Assembly (NCBI GenBank): GCA_017822615.1
Contig: GCA_017822615.1_4530.1
Strand: one strand, 5' to 3'
DNA from: a phage
Length of the DNA: 64,000 nucleotides
This document shows, in pieces, positions 1 through 20,760 of this stretch (within the stretch, counting starts at the first letter, position 1; each line of letters starts with the position of its first letter). The notes under the pieces are model-generated. The model was not told the DNA's origin and did no database searches. It worked only from the letters and a program-made list of their open reading frames with translations. The translations under genes and the position numbers were made by a program.

Positions 1-296
1 AAAAAAACTTTAAATACTGTGGGCGCGCAAAATTTTTAAAATTTTCCTTGACTTTTGAGTTTTGTTTTGTATCTAACATTTTAAGATAATTTTCCTAAAC
101 TTTAAATTTTGGTTTTCAACTTTCACTTTTGTAAATTCTTAAAAAGTTTAAATAATTTGAGGGATTTTTGAGATAAAAGATAGTGGGAATTTGATATAAC
201 CTTTAATCTTATTGGTAAACCTTCAGGAACCCACTCAGATCGAATCCTAGTGATGCAAACTGAAAAAGACAAGGGTTTGTATAGGACAAAATAACA

Positions 297-332
297 GGCT
301 CTCTACGGTGCTGTAGGAGCCTTATTTCTGTG
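297..332. terminator. hairpin terminator at end of leftward early operon (possibly bidirectional)
   Basis: GGCTCTCTAC-ggtgct-GTAGGAGCC stem-loop (297-321, one bulge) followed by TTATTTCTGTG; lies just past the stop of the 378..920 gene. Confidence 0.45.
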
Positions 333-377
333 CTACAAAGTGACACCTTTGTTCTAAAAATGAAAAAAGTTAAAATA

Positions 378-920
378 TCACAAATATCGTCTTTGCGGTA
401 TTTTGTCTGGGAAAAGTATTTCGATCAGTTTATTATGATATTTGCCTAAAAGATTCTGCCCTTTCCAGGTAGCAGGGTTTAGCACCCCTGGTTCATACAT
501 TCCCATTCCAATACCGTAAACCTTATCGTAAGGACTTGCTTCAACAAACGTTTTGTATTGGTAAAGGTGTAAGTCTGCATACAAATCTGGATTCTGTACA
601 TATTTCAAGCATAAGCCTCGCATAACAATACGCTCACGGTTCTCTTCCCACATATCATTATTAAAACCAGATACCGCTCGACCCATACGTTTGTAGTATG
701 CTTGTTTCCTCTCGTTGTCACGTATAGTTGAGTGATCAAGGATAGCTGCTGCAATCGCATGATCCTTGAACAGCAAAGCCTTACGCCACATCATATATTG
801 CTCAACACAACAGAAAGTCTCATTGTAACCTGGTTCAGTTTCTGTAAAGGGTGCAATATACCAATTACTAAACACATCTTTATGTGAAAAGAAGAATACA
901 TATTCATCAGTTATTCTCAT
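378..920 (-). CDS. NADAR-domain protein (YbiA-like, DUF1768)
   Basis: 180 aa ORF; N-terminal FFFSHKDVFSNWY...PFT and central EQYMMWRKALLF resemble the conserved NADAR/YbiA core by eye; last gene of leftward operon. Confidence 0.6.
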   Translation of the reverse strand: MRITDEYVFFFSHKDVFSNWYIAPFTETEPGYNETFCCVEQYMMWRKALLFKDHAIAAAILDHSTIRDNERKQAYYKRMGRAVSGFNNDMWEENRERIVMRGLCLKYVQNPDLYADLHLYQYKTFVEASPYDKVYGIGMGMYEPGVLNPATWKGQNLLGKYHNKLIEILFPDKIPQRRYL

Positions 921-1132
921 TTTTTCATGCCTTCTAAAACTTTAGCTTGCCCGTCTTGAAAAGCTTTCATCAGAACTATCTTAAGATTGACTTCCAAACG
1001 TTCTTCATCCTCTCTATAACAATCCAACACTGCTTTAAGTTCATCATAGTGGTTCAGAATAGGTTTAAAGATTTCATGATCTGCTAAACGTGCCATAGTT
1101 TCTCCTTTGTTAGTCCATCCACCAGTAGCCAT
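917..1132 (-). CDS. hypothetical protein
   Basis: 71 aa ORF, 4-nt overlap with downstream gene (translational coupling), same strand as operon. Confidence 0.4.
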   Translation of the reverse strand: MATGGWTNKGETMARLADHEIFKPILNHYDELKAVLDCYREDEERLEVNLKIVLMKAFQDGQAKVLEGMKK

Positions 1133-1475
1133 AAACTGCGTCTGCGTCGATGAGTTTGTGTTTGTTGTTCCGCATGTAGTCTAAGATAAGTAGACGTTTA
1201 TTGTATCTGGAGAGATTATGACCCTCTTTTCCGCCATAGTCAAAATATTTTGCAAGATCTTTACACTCAAACAAAATCAGTTCGGGAGTTTCTTCACACT
1301 GGTCTGTCTGGTACACTTGACGAATGATCATGTATACATCGTCGTCTTCCGCTAAATGCTCTACTGGTCCACATCCAGCAGGAACAAATTCATAGTCCCA
1401 TCTGATCAGATGTTTCTCTACTGCTTCAAAGAAGTCCATTCTTTCGTTGCGCATAATTTGAACGTCAACTAACAT
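1110..1475 (-). CDS. hypothetical protein
   Basis: 121 aa ORF in leftward operon; start may lie downstream of the track start. Confidence 0.4.
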   Translation of the reverse strand: MLVDVQIMRNERMDFFEAVEKHLIRWDYEFVPAGCGPVEHLAEDDDVYMIIRQVYQTDQCEETPELILFECKDLAKYFDYGGKEGHNLSRYNKRLLILDYMRNNKHKLIDADAVYGYWWMD

Positions 1476-2929
1476 GTTTCCTCCTCTCTCATTATTCCAC
1501 CTGCTTGGTTGATAGCACTTAAGACGATAGCCAAATCCTCGCGCAGGAAGGTTTCACTATGACCATCTTTCATGTGCAAGCGTTCTACACAGCCAATAGA
1601 CGGTAGAATCTGATCAGTCTTAGACTTTAGCTTACTCTCTAACGCCCTGCAAGCTTGGTAGGACGGCAGATCGAACAATGCTATACGGCGCATAGAGTAA
1701 TTGTTGTTTGCATTCTGCCCTTTGATCCTGATATCACTGTCCTTTGCAATCCCCAACTTGTAAGCTCCCGTGTCTTCTCCGTACTCATCAAGAATAATAT
1801 TGATGTAAAATTCTTGCATATTTCTGTTCTTACAGCCTGGACAACCTTTCCCATTGAGATAATCGGTAGGTGTGATCGTTTGCTCTCCATGCTCCCTACA
1901 TAGATATTTAAACTTGCTGTTATTGCTTACCTTATCAATGAATCCTATAAATTGATCCCCTCGTTCCTGGCAAGCTTTGGTCATACGGTAGGCCCATTGT
2001 TCAGGAGTGTAATGATAATATTTAGAACAACGGCAAGGAAGGCCACCCCTTTTCAAATGACTCATCTTCATCTCAAATTTATTATCGCATAAGCCTTCTT
2101 TACAATAATCATCCTCTGCACATATAGGACATTCTACAATCCAGTAAACCTGACGACCTAATCTATCTACTCTATCGCTACGATAATATTTACGCTCTAC
2201 ATTATCAGGACAAGCTTTTATAAAATCTTCAACATGTTGTTTATCCTCCATTGTATTCCTTTGTTTCGTCATTTCTCTTTGACAACTGTAGCATCCAGTC
2301 CCTTGTTTAGCACTGTTTACAGTGGTAGTGCACCATTGACCATGAACCTTACACTCACAAATCAACTTAGTGCGGGAACCGTTCCACGGTTCCACATAGC
2401 CTCTAACAATCCAGGGTTTTTCTTTATAAGCTTCTTCTACTTCTTCTTTATGTTTCTCCCATGCAATCGATGTTCTTTCTCTGTTTGCTTCTCCCATACA
2501 CTTCCTGCATCCACTCCCGTTTTTCGCAGAAGATATAGAAGTAGATCTCCACTCCCCATGTAAAGCACAACAACAAACCAGTTTAGTATTCCATCCTTTC
2601 CATTCTCCGTGCCATCCTGTAACAGTCCAAAACTTACCTGCCTGATTGTAAGTGGTTTGCACTTCTTCTTTATATTGCTCCCAGGTTTTTGATTTGTTTA
2701 TAGATACTGCTTTACTTATAATCTCCCTACCGCATTCTGGACAACCCCTCCCTAGTTTAGCGGTATTTATGCTTGTTGTTTTCCATTCTCCATGCAGAGC
2801 ACAGATGCATCTAAGTTTAGTTTTATTGCCGTTCCACGGCTCAATATAATCTACAACAGTCCAAGACTTACCTTGATAAGCTTGTTTTATATCTGTTTTA
2901 TATTGTTCCCAAGTGACTATTTTTGGCAC
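1469..2929 (-). CDS. Cys-rich protein with three tandem ~60-aa zinc-ribbon-like repeats
   Basis: 486 aa; three repeats of W-x-YK...EPWNG-x-KTKL-x-C-x-CALHGEW-x-TT/S-I...AK-x-G-x-GC-x-x-C in the N-terminal ~210 aa, then further CxxC pairs (CPICAEDDYC, CPGCKN). Confidence 0.5.
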   Translation of the reverse strand: MPKIVTWEQYKTDIKQAYQGKSWTVVDYIEPWNGNKTKLRCICALHGEWKTTSINTAKLGRGCPECGREIISKAVSINKSKTWEQYKEEVQTTYNQAGKFWTVTGWHGEWKGWNTKLVCCCALHGEWRSTSISSAKNGSGCRKCMGEANRERTSIAWEKHKEEVEEAYKEKPWIVRGYVEPWNGSRTKLICECKVHGQWCTTTVNSAKQGTGCYSCQREMTKQRNTMEDKQHVEDFIKACPDNVERKYYRSDRVDRLGRQVYWIVECPICAEDDYCKEGLCDNKFEMKMSHLKRGGLPCRCSKYYHYTPEQWAYRMTKACQERGDQFIGFIDKVSNNSKFKYLCREHGEQTITPTDYLNGKGCPGCKNRNMQEFYINIILDEYGEDTGAYKLGIAKDSDIRIKGQNANNNYSMRRIALFDLPSYQACRALESKLKSKTDQILPSIGCVERLHMKDGHSETFLREDLAIVLSAINQAGGIMREEETC

Positions 2930-2979
2930 ACCTCCCCCTTTAGCTATTAGTGCGAGCCTACAACAAAAGAATAACTAAA

Positions 2980-3013
2980 ATCCCTCCATAACAAATGCCC
3001 CTTGCGGGGCATC
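2980..3013 (-). terminator. intra-operon hairpin (ATGCCCC-ttgc-GGGGCAT)
   Basis: perfect 7-bp GC-rich stem at 2995-3012, U-rich on the minus-strand RNA downstream (rc of AACAAA); between ATPase gene and repeat-protein gene. Confidence 0.45.
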
Positions 3014-3017
3014 TTTA

Positions 3018-4157
3018 TTAGAACACGCTACCAAGTGTAGTGGAACGTTGTGTTACAGGCTCCAGCACCACTCGCAAAGTGTTTCCTGGTGTAGTGCTCA
3101 TAACCAGAATCTTACCACCTTCAATCAGATCACAAGTTAGACCATCAGCCGTTGCACATAGATCAATATGTGGATCACCATCTTCATCCAGGATAACATA
3201 ACTGTTGGTTTCCATTGCTTCCACTTCATCATCTTTCAAACTTTGTAGATAGATGTTCAGGGAACAAGCACCCGACAAAAACTTAGTAGGGGTGAAGTCG
3301 TGCCAGTTATTGATCCAATTCACCTTCAAGGTTTTGCCATTAGCTACGATAGAAGCCACATTCCATTTAGCATCGTTCCCTAAAGAAATACCCATCATTT
3401 CAAGACATTCTTTAAAAGTCATTTTTGGATAGAAATTCAATTCTTCTACAATGCCTTGAATAACATCGAAAGACAACTCTGTGCTAACATCCCATAAACG
3501 TTGGAAGTTATCTACGTGCTTTTTATTTACCAAGTTCTTATCCAAGTAATCTAACATAGTTTCACTAGACAGTTTATCGTAATTGAAACTGTAGTAGATA
3601 CGACTAGGACGGTTTACAAAATATTCCGAGATATAACCACTATTTTTAGTGAGGATGTAAAGTTTATTCCCACTTCCTGTTCCATCCAACAAGGTCAACA
3701 GTGCTTCCTGATCTTCTTTCTTAGCGTACACTTTATCAAATTCGTCAAATAAAACAACAGCACGATCTGTAATTTTACTCATAAATTCTAAGAAGCCAGC
3801 ATCTGTGTAAGGCTGTGTAACCAAAATGGTTGGAATACCTAAACCTTCTGTGGACATTAGAGACATGCTAATTAGTTTAGCTAACATCGTCTTACCACTG
3901 CCTTTTGTCCCTGTCAGTAACACCCCAGTATTTTTACCTTCTTTACTACGACGAGCAAATGTTTTAATAACATGTGCGGCGCGATCTTTAGTTTCCCCAT
4001 AAAGAGTGTTCGGAAGAGAGAAACTTTCACCACGCACTAAAGAGTAGTTACCGTGCGGATCGCAGTTGACAACCCAAACTCCAGCAGGAAGTTTATTAGC
4101 TTCAACGCCATATTCCTTATTTACAACAGCTACATCTCCAAAAATAGTGTATTTCAT
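3018..4157 (-). CDS. P-loop NTPase (AAA-type ATPase-like)
   Basis: 379 aa; Walker A GTKGSGKT and Walker B-like VVLFDEFD. Confidence 0.55.
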   Translation of the reverse strand: MKYTIFGDVAVVNKEYGVEANKLPAGVWVVNCDPHGNYSLVRGESFSLPNTLYGETKDRAAHVIKTFARRSKEGKNTGVLLTGTKGSGKTMLAKLISMSLMSTEGLGIPTILVTQPYTDAGFLEFMSKITDRAVVLFDEFDKVYAKKEDQEALLTLLDGTGSGNKLYILTKNSGYISEYFVNRPSRIYYSFNYDKLSSETMLDYLDKNLVNKKHVDNFQRLWDVSTELSFDVIQGIVEELNFYPKMTFKECLEMMGISLGNDAKWNVASIVANGKTLKVNWINNWHDFTPTKFLSGACSLNIYLQSLKDDEVEAMETNSYVILDEDGDPHIDLCATADGLTCDLIEGGKILVMSTTPGNTLRVVLEPVTQRSTTLGSVF

Positions 4158-6308: not shown

Positions 6309-6602
6309 TCACATTAAGACACGTTTTGTATCGATGGGTGCATTATCAAACATGTTAAGAACATTGTCAAGCAGTTTTACTAATTCATTTGTAATTTGTT
6401 CTTTTGAACGGGAGGAAGTGAGCACTTTGCTTTCACCAACGATATGCATAACTTTTATAGGAGCATCTAAAATAATGTTGTGCTGACGATCCTCTTCAAA
6501 AGAAGCCAACCATTTCTCGTTGTTACCGTGTAAGGCTACAATGACACCAAAACCGTTAATTGTCTCAGAAATATTCTTAGTTGCTAAAGTAATGTTCATC
6601 AT
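6309..6602 (-). CDS. hypothetical protein (first gene of leftward operon)
   Basis: 97 aa ORF directly downstream of the divergent promoter region. Confidence 0.4.
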   Translation of the reverse strand: MMNITLATKNISETINGFGVIVALHGNNEKWLASFEEDRQHNIILDAPIKVMHIVGESKVLTSSRSKEQITNELVKLLDNVLNMFDNAPIDTKRVLM

Positions 6603-6627
6603 CTACCTCTCTTGTTAATGTTCATAT

Positions 6628-6655
6628 ATGATACCTGAAAATAATTTCAGATCAA
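6628..6655 (-). promoter_or_regulatory. sigma70-like promoter for leftward operon
   Basis: on minus strand TTGATC (-35, 6650-6655) N16 TATCAT (-10, 6628-6633). Confidence 0.4.
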
Positions 6656-6658
6656 GTA

Positions 6659-6686
6659 TTGACATGCTTTTTAGTCCTGTTAAGAT
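6659..6686 (+). promoter_or_regulatory. sigma70-like promoter for rightward operon
   Basis: TTGACA (6659-6664) N16 TAAGAT (6681-6686); AGGAG RBS and ATG at 6717 follow. Confidence 0.5.
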
Positions 6687-6716
6687 CAACTCATACAAAA
6701 CAAGAGGAGAAAACAA

Positions 6717-8764: not shown

Positions 8765-9030
8765 GTAAAACTTCTGTTGAGTTTATCGAGAAATCCCCTG
8801 TTCCAAAGTTATACCGTTTATCTGAAATTGAACCTATGTCTGTTTTCTATTACTACAACTCAGAAGTAAATGAACAAGAACGGGACTACTACTTAGCTAC
8901 AGATACAGGTGCAGTTTGCTTAACAGGTTCTCGTGCAGGAGAATACATTGCAAATAGTCGTTTTAATGAAGCAGATTCCTGTTGGGCTAAGGTTGAAACT
9001 AAGATCGTCATCAACATCATCAATCATTAA
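8761..9030 (+). CDS. hypothetical protein
   Basis: 89 aa, ATGA overlap. Confidence 0.45.
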   Translation: MSKTSVEFIEKSPVPKLYRLSEIEPMSVFYYYNSEVNEQERDYYLATDTGAVCLTGSRAGEYIANSRFNEADSCWAKVETKIVINIINH

Positions 9031-9052
9031 GATTAATCTCACAAAGAGTTAC

Positions 9053-9082
9053 TTGACATGTGCAAAGCTCTTTGTGTAGAAT
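9053..9082 (+). promoter_or_regulatory. sigma70-like promoter flanked by 9-bp inverted repeat
   Basis: TTGACA (9053-9058) N18 TAGAAT (9077-9082); CACAAAGAG (9040-9048) and CTCTTTGTG (9068-9076) bracket the -35. Confidence 0.5.
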
Positions 9083-9112
9083 AAAGATTCACTTACTAAG
9101 GAGACTTTATAA

Positions 9113-9310
9113 ATGGCTACAAAGAAACAGAAAATGAAATGTCTTACTCTTACTGAACTGGGTCAAGCTTCCAACTGCGTTACTGTTGGTAAGATTTATT
9201 CTACAGTTCTTGATAAAGACAACAACAGTTTTACTTTCAAAGATGATAACGGAAACCCTCAAGTTGGAATCTACCCTTCCTGTGCTTTTGGTACTTGGGA
9301 AAAAGTGTAA
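9113..9310 (+). CDS. hypothetical protein
   Basis: 65 aa, AAGGAG RBS. Confidence 0.4.
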   Translation: MATKKQKMKCLTLTELGQASNCVTVGKIYSTVLDKDNNSFTFKDDNGNPQVGIYPSCAFGTWEKV

Positions 9311-18189: not shown

Positions 18190-18795
18190 ATGCAACATAG
18201 TGTAGTAGTCAACATGCCGAATAGTGGGGATAAATCTTTTGGTGTCCCTGCTAAAAAAGTGTGGAAAGCCCATTTTCATCTTACTTTATCTAACGTTAGT
18301 TCTGAAGAGTTGATGAAAGCAGCTAAGATCATTGGTGCCAAATGCACAACAATTGATTTACATCGGGATACAAAGTCTCAACGTGATCGTATGTTAACAA
18401 AGTATCAAAGCGATCTCGACACTACGTTAATGTTGCAATGTGTAGAAAAACTTGAGAACGCAGGTTTCAATGTTGTTCGTTACAAACTGGAACGAATGTT
18501 TAAACATGTTGCCTGTGTTCTTTTCATGGATCTAAGCAAAGAAAATTACGGAGAAGTTCACATTAAAACTTCAGCAAGTGATCCTGAAGTAGAAACAAAC
18601 TTCTTCCGTATTTCTTCTAATGCTGAAGAACTTGATTACCGATTTTACAATGCTCGCTTATATTCCGCAGAAGATAAGTTGCGTTTCAATGAAGCATATG
18701 ATATGCTCTTGAACAGTGGGATACAGATAAAAGGCTACCACATAGAACAAGTTGTGGTAGACAGTAACTTAAATCTTGATGCGTGGTGGGCCTAG
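18190..18795 (+). CDS. hypothetical protein
   Basis: 201 aa, GAGGAG RBS. Confidence 0.45.
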   Translation: MQHSVVVNMPNSGDKSFGVPAKKVWKAHFHLTLSNVSSEELMKAAKIIGAKCTTIDLHRDTKSQRDRMLTKYQSDLDTTLMLQCVEKLENAGFNVVRYKLERMFKHVACVLFMDLSKENYGEVHIKTSASDPEVETNFFRISSNAEELDYRFYNARLYSAEDKLRFNEAYDMLLNSGIQIKGYHIEQVVVDSNLNLDAWWA

Positions 18796-18796
18796 T

Positions 18797-19453
18797 ATGA
18801 CAATAAAACATATTTCTTTTGATGTATGGAATACTCTTATTTCTGCCAATCAAAACTATGCAGATGCACGTACGCACACTATTGCTACATATGGTAGAAT
18901 GTCTGAACGTGCGGCAAAAGAAGCATATAAAGATGCCAAAGAAATTATGGATAATGCTGCACTAAATGGGTGTGCAGAAGGTGTAGCATATGCATGGAAT
19001 ATGTTGGGAAGAAAGATAGGTTTAACCCCTGTAGAATCTGCACAAATGCGTTTTGAGTGTGAGCAATGGTTTCTTAAATTTCCTCCACATATCGCTTTAG
19101 ATTTGCCAGTTTGTTTGCTATACTTGTCTGGTAAATATGATCTTAGTATTAAAAGCAATACTAATTTTATATCTGGGAATATTTTGCGTCGTGCTTGTAT
19201 GTTCGACAGTTGGAATTGTTTTGAATTTATGCATTTTTCAGACGAACATCTGTTATGTAAACCAGATCCTAGATTCTTTGTTAGGACCGCCACATATTCA
19301 AGCATTCCTTTGAAGGCTGAAGAGATTTTACATGTTGGGGACAGCGAAGAATTTGATGGTAAATGTGTTGACATAGGGATTAACTTCTGTCATATTAAGA
19401 ACCCTAACGATTTACTAGAGAAACTTAAAAGAGGAGAAATTGTAAATGCGTAA
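18797..19453 (+). CDS. HAD-superfamily hydrolase (phosphatase/nucleotidase-like)
   Basis: N-terminal FDVWNTL (HAD motif I DxDxT-like) and C-terminal HVGDSEEFD (motif IV). Confidence 0.5.
   Translation: MTIKHISFDVWNTLISANQNYADARTHTIATYGRMSERAAKEAYKDAKEIMDNAALNGCAEGVAYAWNMLGRKIGLTPVESAQMRFECEQWFLKFPPHIALDLPVCLLYLSGKYDLSIKSNTNFISGNILRRACMFDSWNCFEFMHFSDEHLLCKPDPRFFVRTATYSSIPLKAEEILHVGDSEEFDGKCVDIGINFCHIKNPNDLLEKLKRGEIVNA
19368..19396 (+). promoter_or_regulatory. sigma70-like promoter inside 3' end of HAD gene
   Basis: TTGACA (19368-19373) N17 CATATT. Confidence 0.3.
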
Positions 19454-20273
19454 TCAAACTCAAATTTTTGCAAATAAATTTGATGACCTGGAAACTGCTA
19501 CTTTTGATATCAAAGACTATTCAAAATTGAAATTTGGTAGTAACCAAGCTGCGCGTCGTATGGGTAAAGAATTGGCACTTCAGTTTTTTGCTCAAGTGGC
19601 AATGAAACATATTGGGGAACAATTTGTTATCATCCCTTCTCCTTATAACCATGTGCACAATGCTGCAACAATGATGACAGATCATTTTATTAATTACTTT
19701 AATATGTTGCAAGCACAATATGATCAAGGTCGTTCAGCAGAACTGGATATTATTCATCGTAAAGTTAGCTATATCAACGATTATGGTTTCTTGGATAAAG
19801 CTAGTCGTAAGAAACTTATTGATGGGGATACATTCTACTGCAACAAAGAATTCTGGGGTGATAAGAAGCTTGTGTTCATTGATGATGTAAATATCACCGG
19901 AACTCATGAAGACAAACTGATTGAGATTCTTGATGAAAATCAAGTTAAAAATGATGTTTACTTCTTGTATTTTGCAAAATATGAAGGTAATCAAGCAGAT
20001 ACTGAAGCTAAACTGAATTTTAACTACATCAATACACCAGAAGCGTTTGTTAAAATGATTAATGAAGAACGTGATGCACAGTGTCTTGTTCGTCCTATTA
20101 AGTATCTTATGGGCCAAAATCACGAAGACTTCAAAATCATTCTTAGCCAATTGCCACACTACTATGTAGAGCAACTTTTCTTCGGATGTTTGGGAGAAGG
20201 TTACAACCGAATTTCAAAGTATGCTGAAAACTTTGAATTCTTGGATCGTTACACAAAACAACACATTCTGTAA
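19446..20273 (+). CDS. phosphoribosyltransferase (PRTase)-like protein
   Basis: KKLVFIDDVNITGTHED matches the type I PRTase PRPP-binding loop pattern. Confidence 0.5.
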   Translation: MRNQTQIFANKFDDLETATFDIKDYSKLKFGSNQAARRMGKELALQFFAQVAMKHIGEQFVIIPSPYNHVHNAATMMTDHFINYFNMLQAQYDQGRSAELDIIHRKVSYINDYGFLDKASRKKLIDGDTFYCNKEFWGDKKLVFIDDVNITGTHEDKLIEILDENQVKNDVYFLYFAKYEGNQADTEAKLNFNYINTPEAFVKMINEERDAQCLVRPIKYLMGQNHEDFKIILSQLPHYYVEQLFFGCLGEGYNRISKYAENFEFLDRYTKQHIL

Positions 20274-20286
20274 TAAGGAGCTAAAA

Positions 20287-20760
20287 ATGCTTAAAATGAA
20301 AACAGGTAATCTTATTGATGCCGCTAAAGCAGGTGAAGTAACTGTTATTGCTCATTGTTGCAATTGTATGTGTAATATGGGAGCAGGAATTGCTCCGCAA
20401 ATTAAACGAGCATTCCCTTATGCATATGCGGCAGATTTAGACACAATGGCTGGTGATCAAAGTAAGTTAGGTTCTTTTAGTTTAGGGGTGCCAGACGAAC
20501 AATCAGACCCTTTGGTATATAATCTATACGGGCAATACCGTTACGGATACAATGCTAAAGGTCGTCAGTTGGACTATGATGCACTTTACGATGCACTAAT
20601 AGCTATGGCTAATGATTTGCTTCTCCGTGACCAAAAATGTAAGATCGGTTTACCTATGATTGGAGCGGGACATGCCGGAGGTAATTGGGCTATCATCCAA
20701 GTGATGATTGAAGAAACTTTAGTAAAAACAGGTCACGATGTGACTATTTATAAACTTTAA
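20287..20760 (+). CDS. macro-domain protein (ADP-ribose binding/hydrolase)
   Basis: start moved to ATG 20287 after AAGGAG; VIAHCCNCMCNMGAGIAPQI and GLPMIGAGHAGGNW match macro-domain glycine-rich loops. Confidence 0.65.
   Translation: MLKMKTGNLIDAAKAGEVTVIAHCCNCMCNMGAGIAPQIKRAFPYAYAADLDTMAGDQSKLGSFSLGVPDEQSDPLVYNLYGQYRYGYNAKGRQLDYDALYDALIAMANDLLLRDQKCKIGLPMIGAGHAGGNWAIIQVMIEETLVKTGHDVTIYKL

Follow-up and report, generated by a model that had tools for sequence, protein, structure and literature searches.

A NADAR-domain protein of phAPEC8-like coliphages is a predicted AdfN-type glycohydrolase for guanine-linked ADP-ribose in DNA

The question raised by this locus is what use a coliphage might make of a NADAR-domain protein, which ADP-ribosylated substrate such a protein would process, and against which host defence. 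The gene lies close to the left edge of the 64,000-nucleotide stretch of phage DNA analysed here (contig GCA_017822615.1_4530.1; the whole stretch is referred to below as the window), the first 3 kb of which are 99.8–99.9% identical to phAPEC8-like coliphages, e.g., ESCO37 and Schickermooser (Phapecoctavirus, Stephanstirmvirinae). In the ORF listing of the window the reading frame (Table 1) begins with an ATG that overlaps with the stop codon of the preceding ORF (ATGA at 917–920) and is preceded by the ribosome-binding site AGAAGG. Its product matches Pfam PF08719 with E = 3.4e-35 and 122.1 bits (cutoff 35.1) over profile positions 3–154 of 163, NCBIfam TIGR02464 (‘riboflavin biosynthesis intermediates N-glycosidase’) with 3.8e-33 and 114.9 bits (cutoff 73.7), PHROG 1017 with 3.8e-51, and PADLOC PDC-M42C with 3.6e-35 and 119.5 bits, the last match being as strong as that to Pfam NADAR. 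The protein consists of a single Pfam domain, and the core fold starts at the N-terminus, residue 11 aligning with profile position 3. Matches of this strength are far beyond chance; the gene is genuine and is also conserved in phages, with 71 Phapecoctavirus records at 80–100% amino-acid identity. PDC-M42C is the PADLOC model for one part of a candidate anti-phage system, and the NCBIfam model ‘NADAR family anti-phage protein’ also matched the protein, weakly; the two models indicate that NADARs of a similar type also occur within candidate bacterial defence systems.

Table 1. Coordinates of the NADAR gene and of the neighbouring features in the window.
Feature	Coordinates	Strand	Evidence
Intrinsic-terminator-like hairpin, 10 bp with one bulge (296–322), followed by GUUAUUUUGU (286–295)	286..322	-	RNA fold
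NADAR-domain protein, predicted DNA guanine-ADP-ribose glycohydrolase (AdfN-type), 180 aa	378..920	-	ORF, Pfam, AF2, Foldseek, residue mapping
Small ORF, 59 aa from ATG at 1096 (mechanical ORF to 1132), stop overlaps NADAR start	917..1096	-	PHROG 22330 (residues 13–71); gp171 in Schickermooser
121-aa ORF, Phapecoctavirus-specific, nearly invariant in the genus	1110..1475	-	PHROG 24465
CapR-repeat protein, 486 aa, with five zinc-finger DNA-binding repeats, resembling homing endonucleases	1469..2929	-	Pfam CapR 1.4e-28 (5 stretches); PHROG 681 ‘endonuclease’
GC-rich palindromic hairpin ATGCCCCnnnnGGGGCAT, between the ATPase and CapR-repeat genes	2995..3012	.	Scan; ARNold terminator annotation in Schickermooser
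AAA-type ATPase, 379 aa, synteny anchor	3018..4157	-	Pfam AAA; PHROG 2376

The AlphaFold2 model of the protein, built with 68 homologues, has a pLDDT of 95.3 and a pTM of 0.89, and the last four residues alone are disordered. Foldseek searches against the PDB gave two significant matches, both of them NADAR folds: 8BAU (E = 1.6e-9, TM 0.78), the Phytophthora nicotianae NADAR (PnNADAR) with bound ADP-ribose, and 2B3W (E = 1.2e-6, TM 0.69–0.74), E. coli YbiA. Schuller et al. (PMC11543638) listed 13 PnNADAR residues that touch ADP-ribose. Ten of these are identical in the phage protein: E43, K50, K75, G78, R79, V81, W89, R93, E125 and D130 of PnNADAR correspond to E40, K47, K77, G80, R81, V83, W91, R95, E127 and D132, respectively, and the remaining three are conservative replacements (Y84 by F86, D86 by N88, and W133 by Y135). 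Across the 68 homologues E40, K47, G80, W91, E127 and D132 are invariant. A loop specific to Stephanstirmvirinae (residues 63–71) precedes the helix that carries K77 and R81. An earlier reading of this DNA, made from the sequence alone, had proposed a 180-aa protein with a NADAR core and had asked for a Pfam match as a check; the ORF proved to be exact, the PF08719 match is the one given above, and the catalytic residues E40, K47, K77, R81, E127 and D132 are all intact in the alignment to PnNADAR. Thus neither of the two observations that would have spoken against that proposal, a missing NADAR profile match or a loss of catalytic residues, was made.

The NADAR superfamily has been split into general NADARs, YbiA-type proteins, DarG1 antitoxins and T4-like phage NADARs, and the residue equivalent to E125 of PnNADAR is diagnostic, being Glu in the general and YbiA families, Asp in DarG1, and His in T4 gp30.3 (PMC11543638; PMC12945103). 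In the phage protein this residue is Glu (E127), and it aligns with a His of gp30.3. The pairwise identity amounts to 31% with PnNADAR, 30% with YbiA, and 20% with gp30.3, and the profile of the protein’s own clade scored 123 bits against PnNADAR and 62.9 bits against YbiA; the same clade-profile search did not retrieve 8BAT (G. lovleyi DarG1) even at E ≤ 1. A single-sequence search with the phage protein at E ≤ 0.01 found 8BAU but not 2B3W. Since Glu127, the profile scores, the identities, and the lack of the DarG1 N-terminal extension all point the same way, the protein is, as judged from these sequence features, a general, Glu-type NADAR and not one of the DarG1, T4 gp30.3 or YbiA type.

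The general NADARs considered here (PnNADAR 8BAU, S. coelicolor SCO5665 and the E. coli sigma-70-operon NADAR) have Glu at the E125 site in common with the phage protein, which is likewise devoid of an N-terminal extension and keeps the ADP-ribose contact residues. PnNADAR is the best PDB match both by sequence (E = 1.2e-12; 9.9e-35 with the clade profile) and by fold (TM 0.78), although the identity is only about 31% (26% over the structural alignment) and the protein studied here is phage-encoded and has the clade-specific loop 63–71. Activity on C-ADPr has been reported for some general-family NADARs (PMC12945103).

The other three assignments were considered and rejected. DarG1 proteins (E. 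coli C7, G. lovleyi 8BAT) belong to the same superfamily, and the cell outcome obtained with AdfN(Bas60), the phage NADAR discussed below, is alike, i.e., a reversal of DarT1 toxicity; however, an adjacent DarT1, the N-terminal extension, and the catalytic Asp (D171 of E. coli C7), in place of which there is Glu, are all missing here, and PADLOC gave PDC-M42C alone, with no DarG/DarT match. No ART/DarT match was found by Pfam and PADLOC among the neighbours of the NADAR gene, and such a lack of an adjacent toxin partner fits an orphan antitoxin-like gene. AdfN(T4), i.e., gp30.3, is also a phage-encoded orphan, is used against DarTG1, and shares the E and K of the E-x6-K motif (E36/K43 in gp30.3, E40/K47 in our protein), but the His of gp30.3 in the position of Glu127 and the 20% identity speak against a T4-like identity. 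Moreover, AdfN(T4) needs the T-even infection context while AdfN(Bas60) does not (PMC11825919). E. coli YbiA has the fold (Foldseek E = 1.2e-6), the conserved Glu, and the TIGR02464 match in common with the phage protein, but lacks its loop 139–151, is 30% identical to it, and is encoded in another genomic context, described for ybiA as a LexA-controlled dinG operon (PMC11125620). The YbiA-type identity was discarded on the clade-profile scores (62.9 bits vs. 123 bits for PnNADAR) and on the absence of a riboflavin context or RibA/RibD fusion. In a 99.8%-identical relative, no riboflavin genes are annotated across the 64 kb that match the window, and none is fused to the NADAR protein.

The label ‘GTP cyclohydrolase II’, borne by the gene in many GenBank records, is wrong, as Pfam shows no such domain but NADAR alone; this name and its like were carried over from the annotation of RibA-fusion proteins (COG3236). 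Other GenBank labels on the gene are ‘N-glycosidase YbiA’, ‘swarming motility protein’, ‘DNA methyltransferase’ and ‘hypothetical protein’.

The closest functional information comes from a sister genus. Tblastn searches of phage genomes revealed NADAR homologues in 719 records, including a group of about 57% identity in phi92-like phages, among them the BASEL phages PaulScherrer, EmilieFrey and JohannJBalmer. Bas60–Bas62 are the phi92-like isolates of the BASEL paper, EmilieFrey being Bas61, and the genes of PaulScherrer bear bas60_ locus tags. The NADAR of Bas60–62 was named AdfN(Bas60) by Johannesman et al. 2025 (PMC11825919). Their evidence comes from ectopic expression: DarT1 was neutralised by AdfN(Bas60) in E. 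coli cells free of phage, and the three unrelated phages RB69, T5 and Bas25 again reached their full titre on hosts with DarTG1, whereas T5 gained no protection from the thymine-specific DarTG2. The window and Bas60 (positions 1–148,900 of 150,425) were both scanned, as six-frame ORFs, with a pair of NADAR HMMs; YbiA, gp30.3 and PnNADAR were included in one of the two. One NADAR ORF was found per sequence, bas60_0111 and the ORF at 378–920, respectively, and no second NADAR, even one as divergent as gp30.3 or YbiA, was detected in the window or in Bas60 1–148,900; bas60_0111 is therefore the published AdfN(Bas60).

Over 172 aa, our NADAR protein and bas60_0111 (QXV83846.1; PaulScherrer, Justusliebigvirus) share 57% identity, and the order of genes is common to both phages: an AAA ATPase (64% identical to bas60_0109), a CapR-repeat protein (35% to bas60_0110), and then NADAR. 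The identity, the common gene order and the single NADAR ORF in either sequence establish orthology with AdfN(Bas60) of the sister genus. Both proteins, of 183 aa in Bas60 and 180 aa here, have the clade-specific insertion before the K77/R81 helix and all the catalytic residues. They differ in a 7-residue insertion at positions 28–36 of AdfN(Bas60), missing in our protein, and Bas60 is devoid of the two small ORFs that separate the CapR-repeat and NADAR genes in the window.

By analogy with this orthologue, we consider it likely that the gene encodes an AdfN-type orphan ADP-ribosylglycohydrolase that clears DarT1-type guanine ADP-ribose from phage DNA and so lets the phage escape DarTG1. The enzyme would bind the ADP-ribose put on guanine N2 of phage DNA by a DarT1-type toxin of the host. 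The pyrophosphate would be held by K47, K77, R81, W91, R95, D132 and Y135, with F86 stacking on the adenine, and the distal ribose would be held by E40 and E127. Hydrolysis of the N-glycosidic bond would then release ADP-ribose and restore the unmodified guanine, and replication and transcription could go on in DarTG1-carrying hosts. We infer the same activity and role for the protein in its own phage, as well as its early production.

The sequence-only reading had suggested counter-defence against ADP-ribosylating toxins such as DarT. The counter-defence part is upheld by the experiments on the 57%-identical, syntenic AdfN(Bas60) (PMC11825919), whereas DarT in general has to be narrowed to DarT1: AdfN(Bas60) counters DarTG1 and not DarTG2, so the expected target is guanine N2 (DarT1) and not thymine (DarT2). 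In vitro, other NADARs (PMC11125620, PMC11543638) and likewise AdfN(T4) (PMC11825919) have been demonstrated to strip ADP-ribose from guanine in DNA. Both T4 gp30.3 and YbiA show activity in vitro but do not protect uninfected cells against DarT1 (PMC11125620), so that at 57% identity the substrate or context specificity could differ. Our literature search found no experiment on any Phapecoctavirus NADAR.

The Glu at position 127 bears directly on the choice of substrate. The general and YbiA families, which have Glu in this place, cleave G-ADPr as well as C-ADPr in DNA and RNA, while the enzymes with Asp (DarG1) or His (T4) are confined to G-ADPr (PMC12945103). The main substrate might accordingly be another ADP-ribosylated nucleic acid, i.e., G-ADPr or C-ADPr on RNA or DNA, produced by pierisin/ScARP-like, YarT-like, or undescribed defence or competitor toxins, with the reversal of DarT1 as a side activity. 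Such a reading is in line with the clade-profile result, in which PnNADAR is retrieved and the DarG1 structure is not, with the nearest bacterial homologues being orphan genes that have no DarT alongside, and with a PDC-M42C match equal in strength to that of Pfam NADAR. We nevertheless hold it to be rather unlikely, as the in vivo data for the Bas60 clade concern DarT1/DarTG1 only (PMC11825919), and the cited literature names no E. coli defence that ADP-ribosylates cytosine or RNA; it would, besides, extend the AdfN-type explanation instead of excluding it. On a further reading, itself unlikely, the protein may erase base-linked ADP-ribose with a broad spectrum and so protect beyond DarTG1, undescribed E. 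coli defences included, with its specificity tuned by the variable segment 34–90. This suggestion derives from the Glu-type active site and from the location of the Stephanstirmvirinae loop 63–71 inside that segment.

A housekeeping function, namely that of a YbiA-type N-glycosidase destroying reactive intermediates of the riboflavin pathway, appears extremely improbable. The TIGR02464 score above its cutoff, the conservation of the Glu typical of YbiA, 2B3W as the second structural match, and several GenBank records naming the product ‘N-glycosidase YbiA’ or ‘GTP cyclohydrolase II’ could be quoted in its favour. Against these stand the identities (30% to E. coli YbiA vs. 57% to AdfN(Bas60)) and the clade-profile scores already given, the lack of an adjacent or fused riboflavin gene and of a GTP cyclohydrolase II domain, and the grouping of AdfN(Bas60) with non-YbiA bacterial NADARs in the AdfN paper (PMC11825919). 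The protein might also degrade soluble immune signals derived from ADP-ribose or the products of NAD+ breakdown, alongside other phage NAD+/ADPr genes; a role of this kind was suggested for phage NADARs generally by Iyer et al. in 2022 (PMC9503650), and a Macro-domain protein is encoded in the window (20221–20760), as are a sirtuin, NAMPT and PRPP synthetase in Bas60. The proposal of a soluble substrate, however, is older than the biochemistry, and all NADARs assayed since then act on base-linked ADP-ribose (PMC11125620, PMC12945103). As the NADAR gene adjoins no NAD+ salvage, Macro or sirtuin gene, and no soluble substrate is known for NADARs of this clade, we regard this possibility as very unlikely, and the removal of DarT1-type guanine ADP-ribose remains the preferred reading.

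The alleles of the gene within Phapecoctavirus differ in a patterned way. Compared with the ESCO5 allele, the nucleotide and amino-acid identities are 88% and 90%, with a dS of 0.46 and a dN/dS of 0.15, the latter value indicating purifying selection. About 16 of the 18 amino-acid changes fall within residues 34–90, the segment that holds the loop 63–71, and the catalytic residues are unchanged. In the same comparison the 121-aa ORF is 100% identical as a protein and 99.5% identical in nucleotides, and the NADAR gene with its 88% therefore forms a local island of divergence between genomes that are otherwise nearly identical. The dS value points to an imported allele rather than to positive selection. 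The CapR-repeat gene of ESCO5 is swapped for an unalignable 402-aa version (844–2052 of the compared segment), with flanks that are 95–99% identical, and the site of this gene looks, from the alignment, like a recombination boundary. Repeats of the CapR type commonly serve as DNA-binding modules in T5orf172 homing endonucleases, often located at boundaries of genetic exchange (PMC10448857), which fits the ESCO5 pattern around the NADAR gene. The CapR-repeat gene itself resembles one for a T5orf172-type homing endonuclease, with no nuclease domain above the Pfam cutoff in its product.

More distant relatives were found in bacteria. The homologues from Burkholderia (B. pseudomallei group) are about 42% identical and adjoin a Gp3-like (PF18897) gene, the other ORFs around them being mostly without Pfam domains; these copies may lie in a prophage region, in which case some of the ‘bacterial’ relatives in the clade would themselves be phage-borne. 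The Kofleriaceae homologue is a lone chromosomal gene. Both the Burkholderia and Kofleriaceae copies are without a toxin partner, and the bacterial context thus gave no clue to a different target.

The NADAR gene is the last of four ORFs in a compact block that runs from 2929 down to 378 (the CapR-repeat, 121-aa, 59-aa and NADAR ORFs). The hairpin that follows it (Table 1) lies 56 nt downstream of the stop codon and has a folding energy of -23.3 kcal/mol (z = -4.59; none of 200 shuffled sequences was as stable); a simple terminator scan missed it because of the bulge. The leftward genes begin at a divergent intergenic region at about 6600–6716, with sigma-70-like sites on both strands. In complete close relatives more than 25 further leftward genes lie beyond a 574-bp intergenic gap after the NADAR gene, which means that this gene does not end the leftward gene array. 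Hence, where the sequence-only reading placed the gene at the end of the early leftward operon, it is right in that the gene closes a compact block with a terminator hairpin after it, and goes too far in that leftward genes continue beyond. By its position, the NADAR gene probably closes the block at a terminator, and the hairpin at 2995..3012 is possibly a partial terminator upstream of the block. No convincing sigma-70 promoter for the four-gene block was recognized between that hairpin and the start codon of the CapR-repeat gene, and sigma-70-like matches overall are not enriched (44 vs. 35.8 ± 6.5 in shuffled sequences). An Rfam search of window positions 1–3100 at E ≤ 1 gave no RNA element in the intergenic region or over the NADAR gene, no tRNA or tmRNA genes are present in the window, and the literature search found no Phapecoctavirus transcriptome.

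The 121-aa ORF has at least 99% identity in 65 records and weak (~30%) relatives in some Klebsiella phages, and the distribution search confined the 59-aa ORF to Phapecoctavirus. Neither of the two has a domain match. A functional link between these small ORFs and NADAR was considered and dropped: they are restricted to Phapecoctavirus, missing in Bas60 and without domains, and nothing ties them to the NADAR gene.

Relatives already carry the DUF1768/NADAR annotation for this domain, and the action of phage NADARs against DarTG1 was described in 2025, with the orthologous clade among those tested. Only the Phapecoctavirus version itself is new, along with the combination of a Glu-type site and a variable segment that invites a study of specificity. 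The value of the assignment is practical and not conceptual, and it raises no question beyond those of the 2023–2026 NADAR papers. It allows the gene, which dozens of therapeutic-candidate coliphage genomes list as ‘hypothetical protein’ or, incorrectly, as ‘GTP cyclohydrolase II’, to be named with confidence as an AdfN-type DNA ADP-ribosylglycohydrolase, and it leads to the prediction that phAPEC8-like phages would resist DarTG1-carrying E. coli. The alleles that are 57% and about 90% identical also constitute a second natural sequence series for the mapping of NADAR specificity residues.

Elsewhere in the window, the Macro-domain protein (20221–20760, plus strand) matches Pfam Macro with 22.8 bits, just over the cutoff of 22, and would be a second potential ADP-ribose-processing enzyme of the phage, encoded far from the NADAR gene. 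Its gene directly follows those for a ComF-like PRTase_3 protein (19446–20273, plus strand) and a HAD-hydrolase-like protein (18776–19453, plus strand; Pfam Hydrolase 19.5 bits, under the cutoff of 26.4), within a TerD/TelA/TerC cluster. Bas60 has the same Macro/PRTase_3/HAD trio, and its sirtuin, NAMPT and PRPP synthetase genes lie elsewhere in the genome. The 574-bp region downstream of the NADAR gene contains a 72-nt direct repeat in two copies, 82% identical and 138 nt apart, the second of which occupies window positions 88–159. The repeat-bearing intergenic stretch covers 1–21, 38–71 and 88–159 of the window and 8831–9159 in the compared relative. Just beyond the left edge of the window, four copies of the 19-nt motif ATGAnAATCATTnTCATTT are arranged with a spacing of exactly 29 nt, and by eye this motif resembles a Fur box or iterons.
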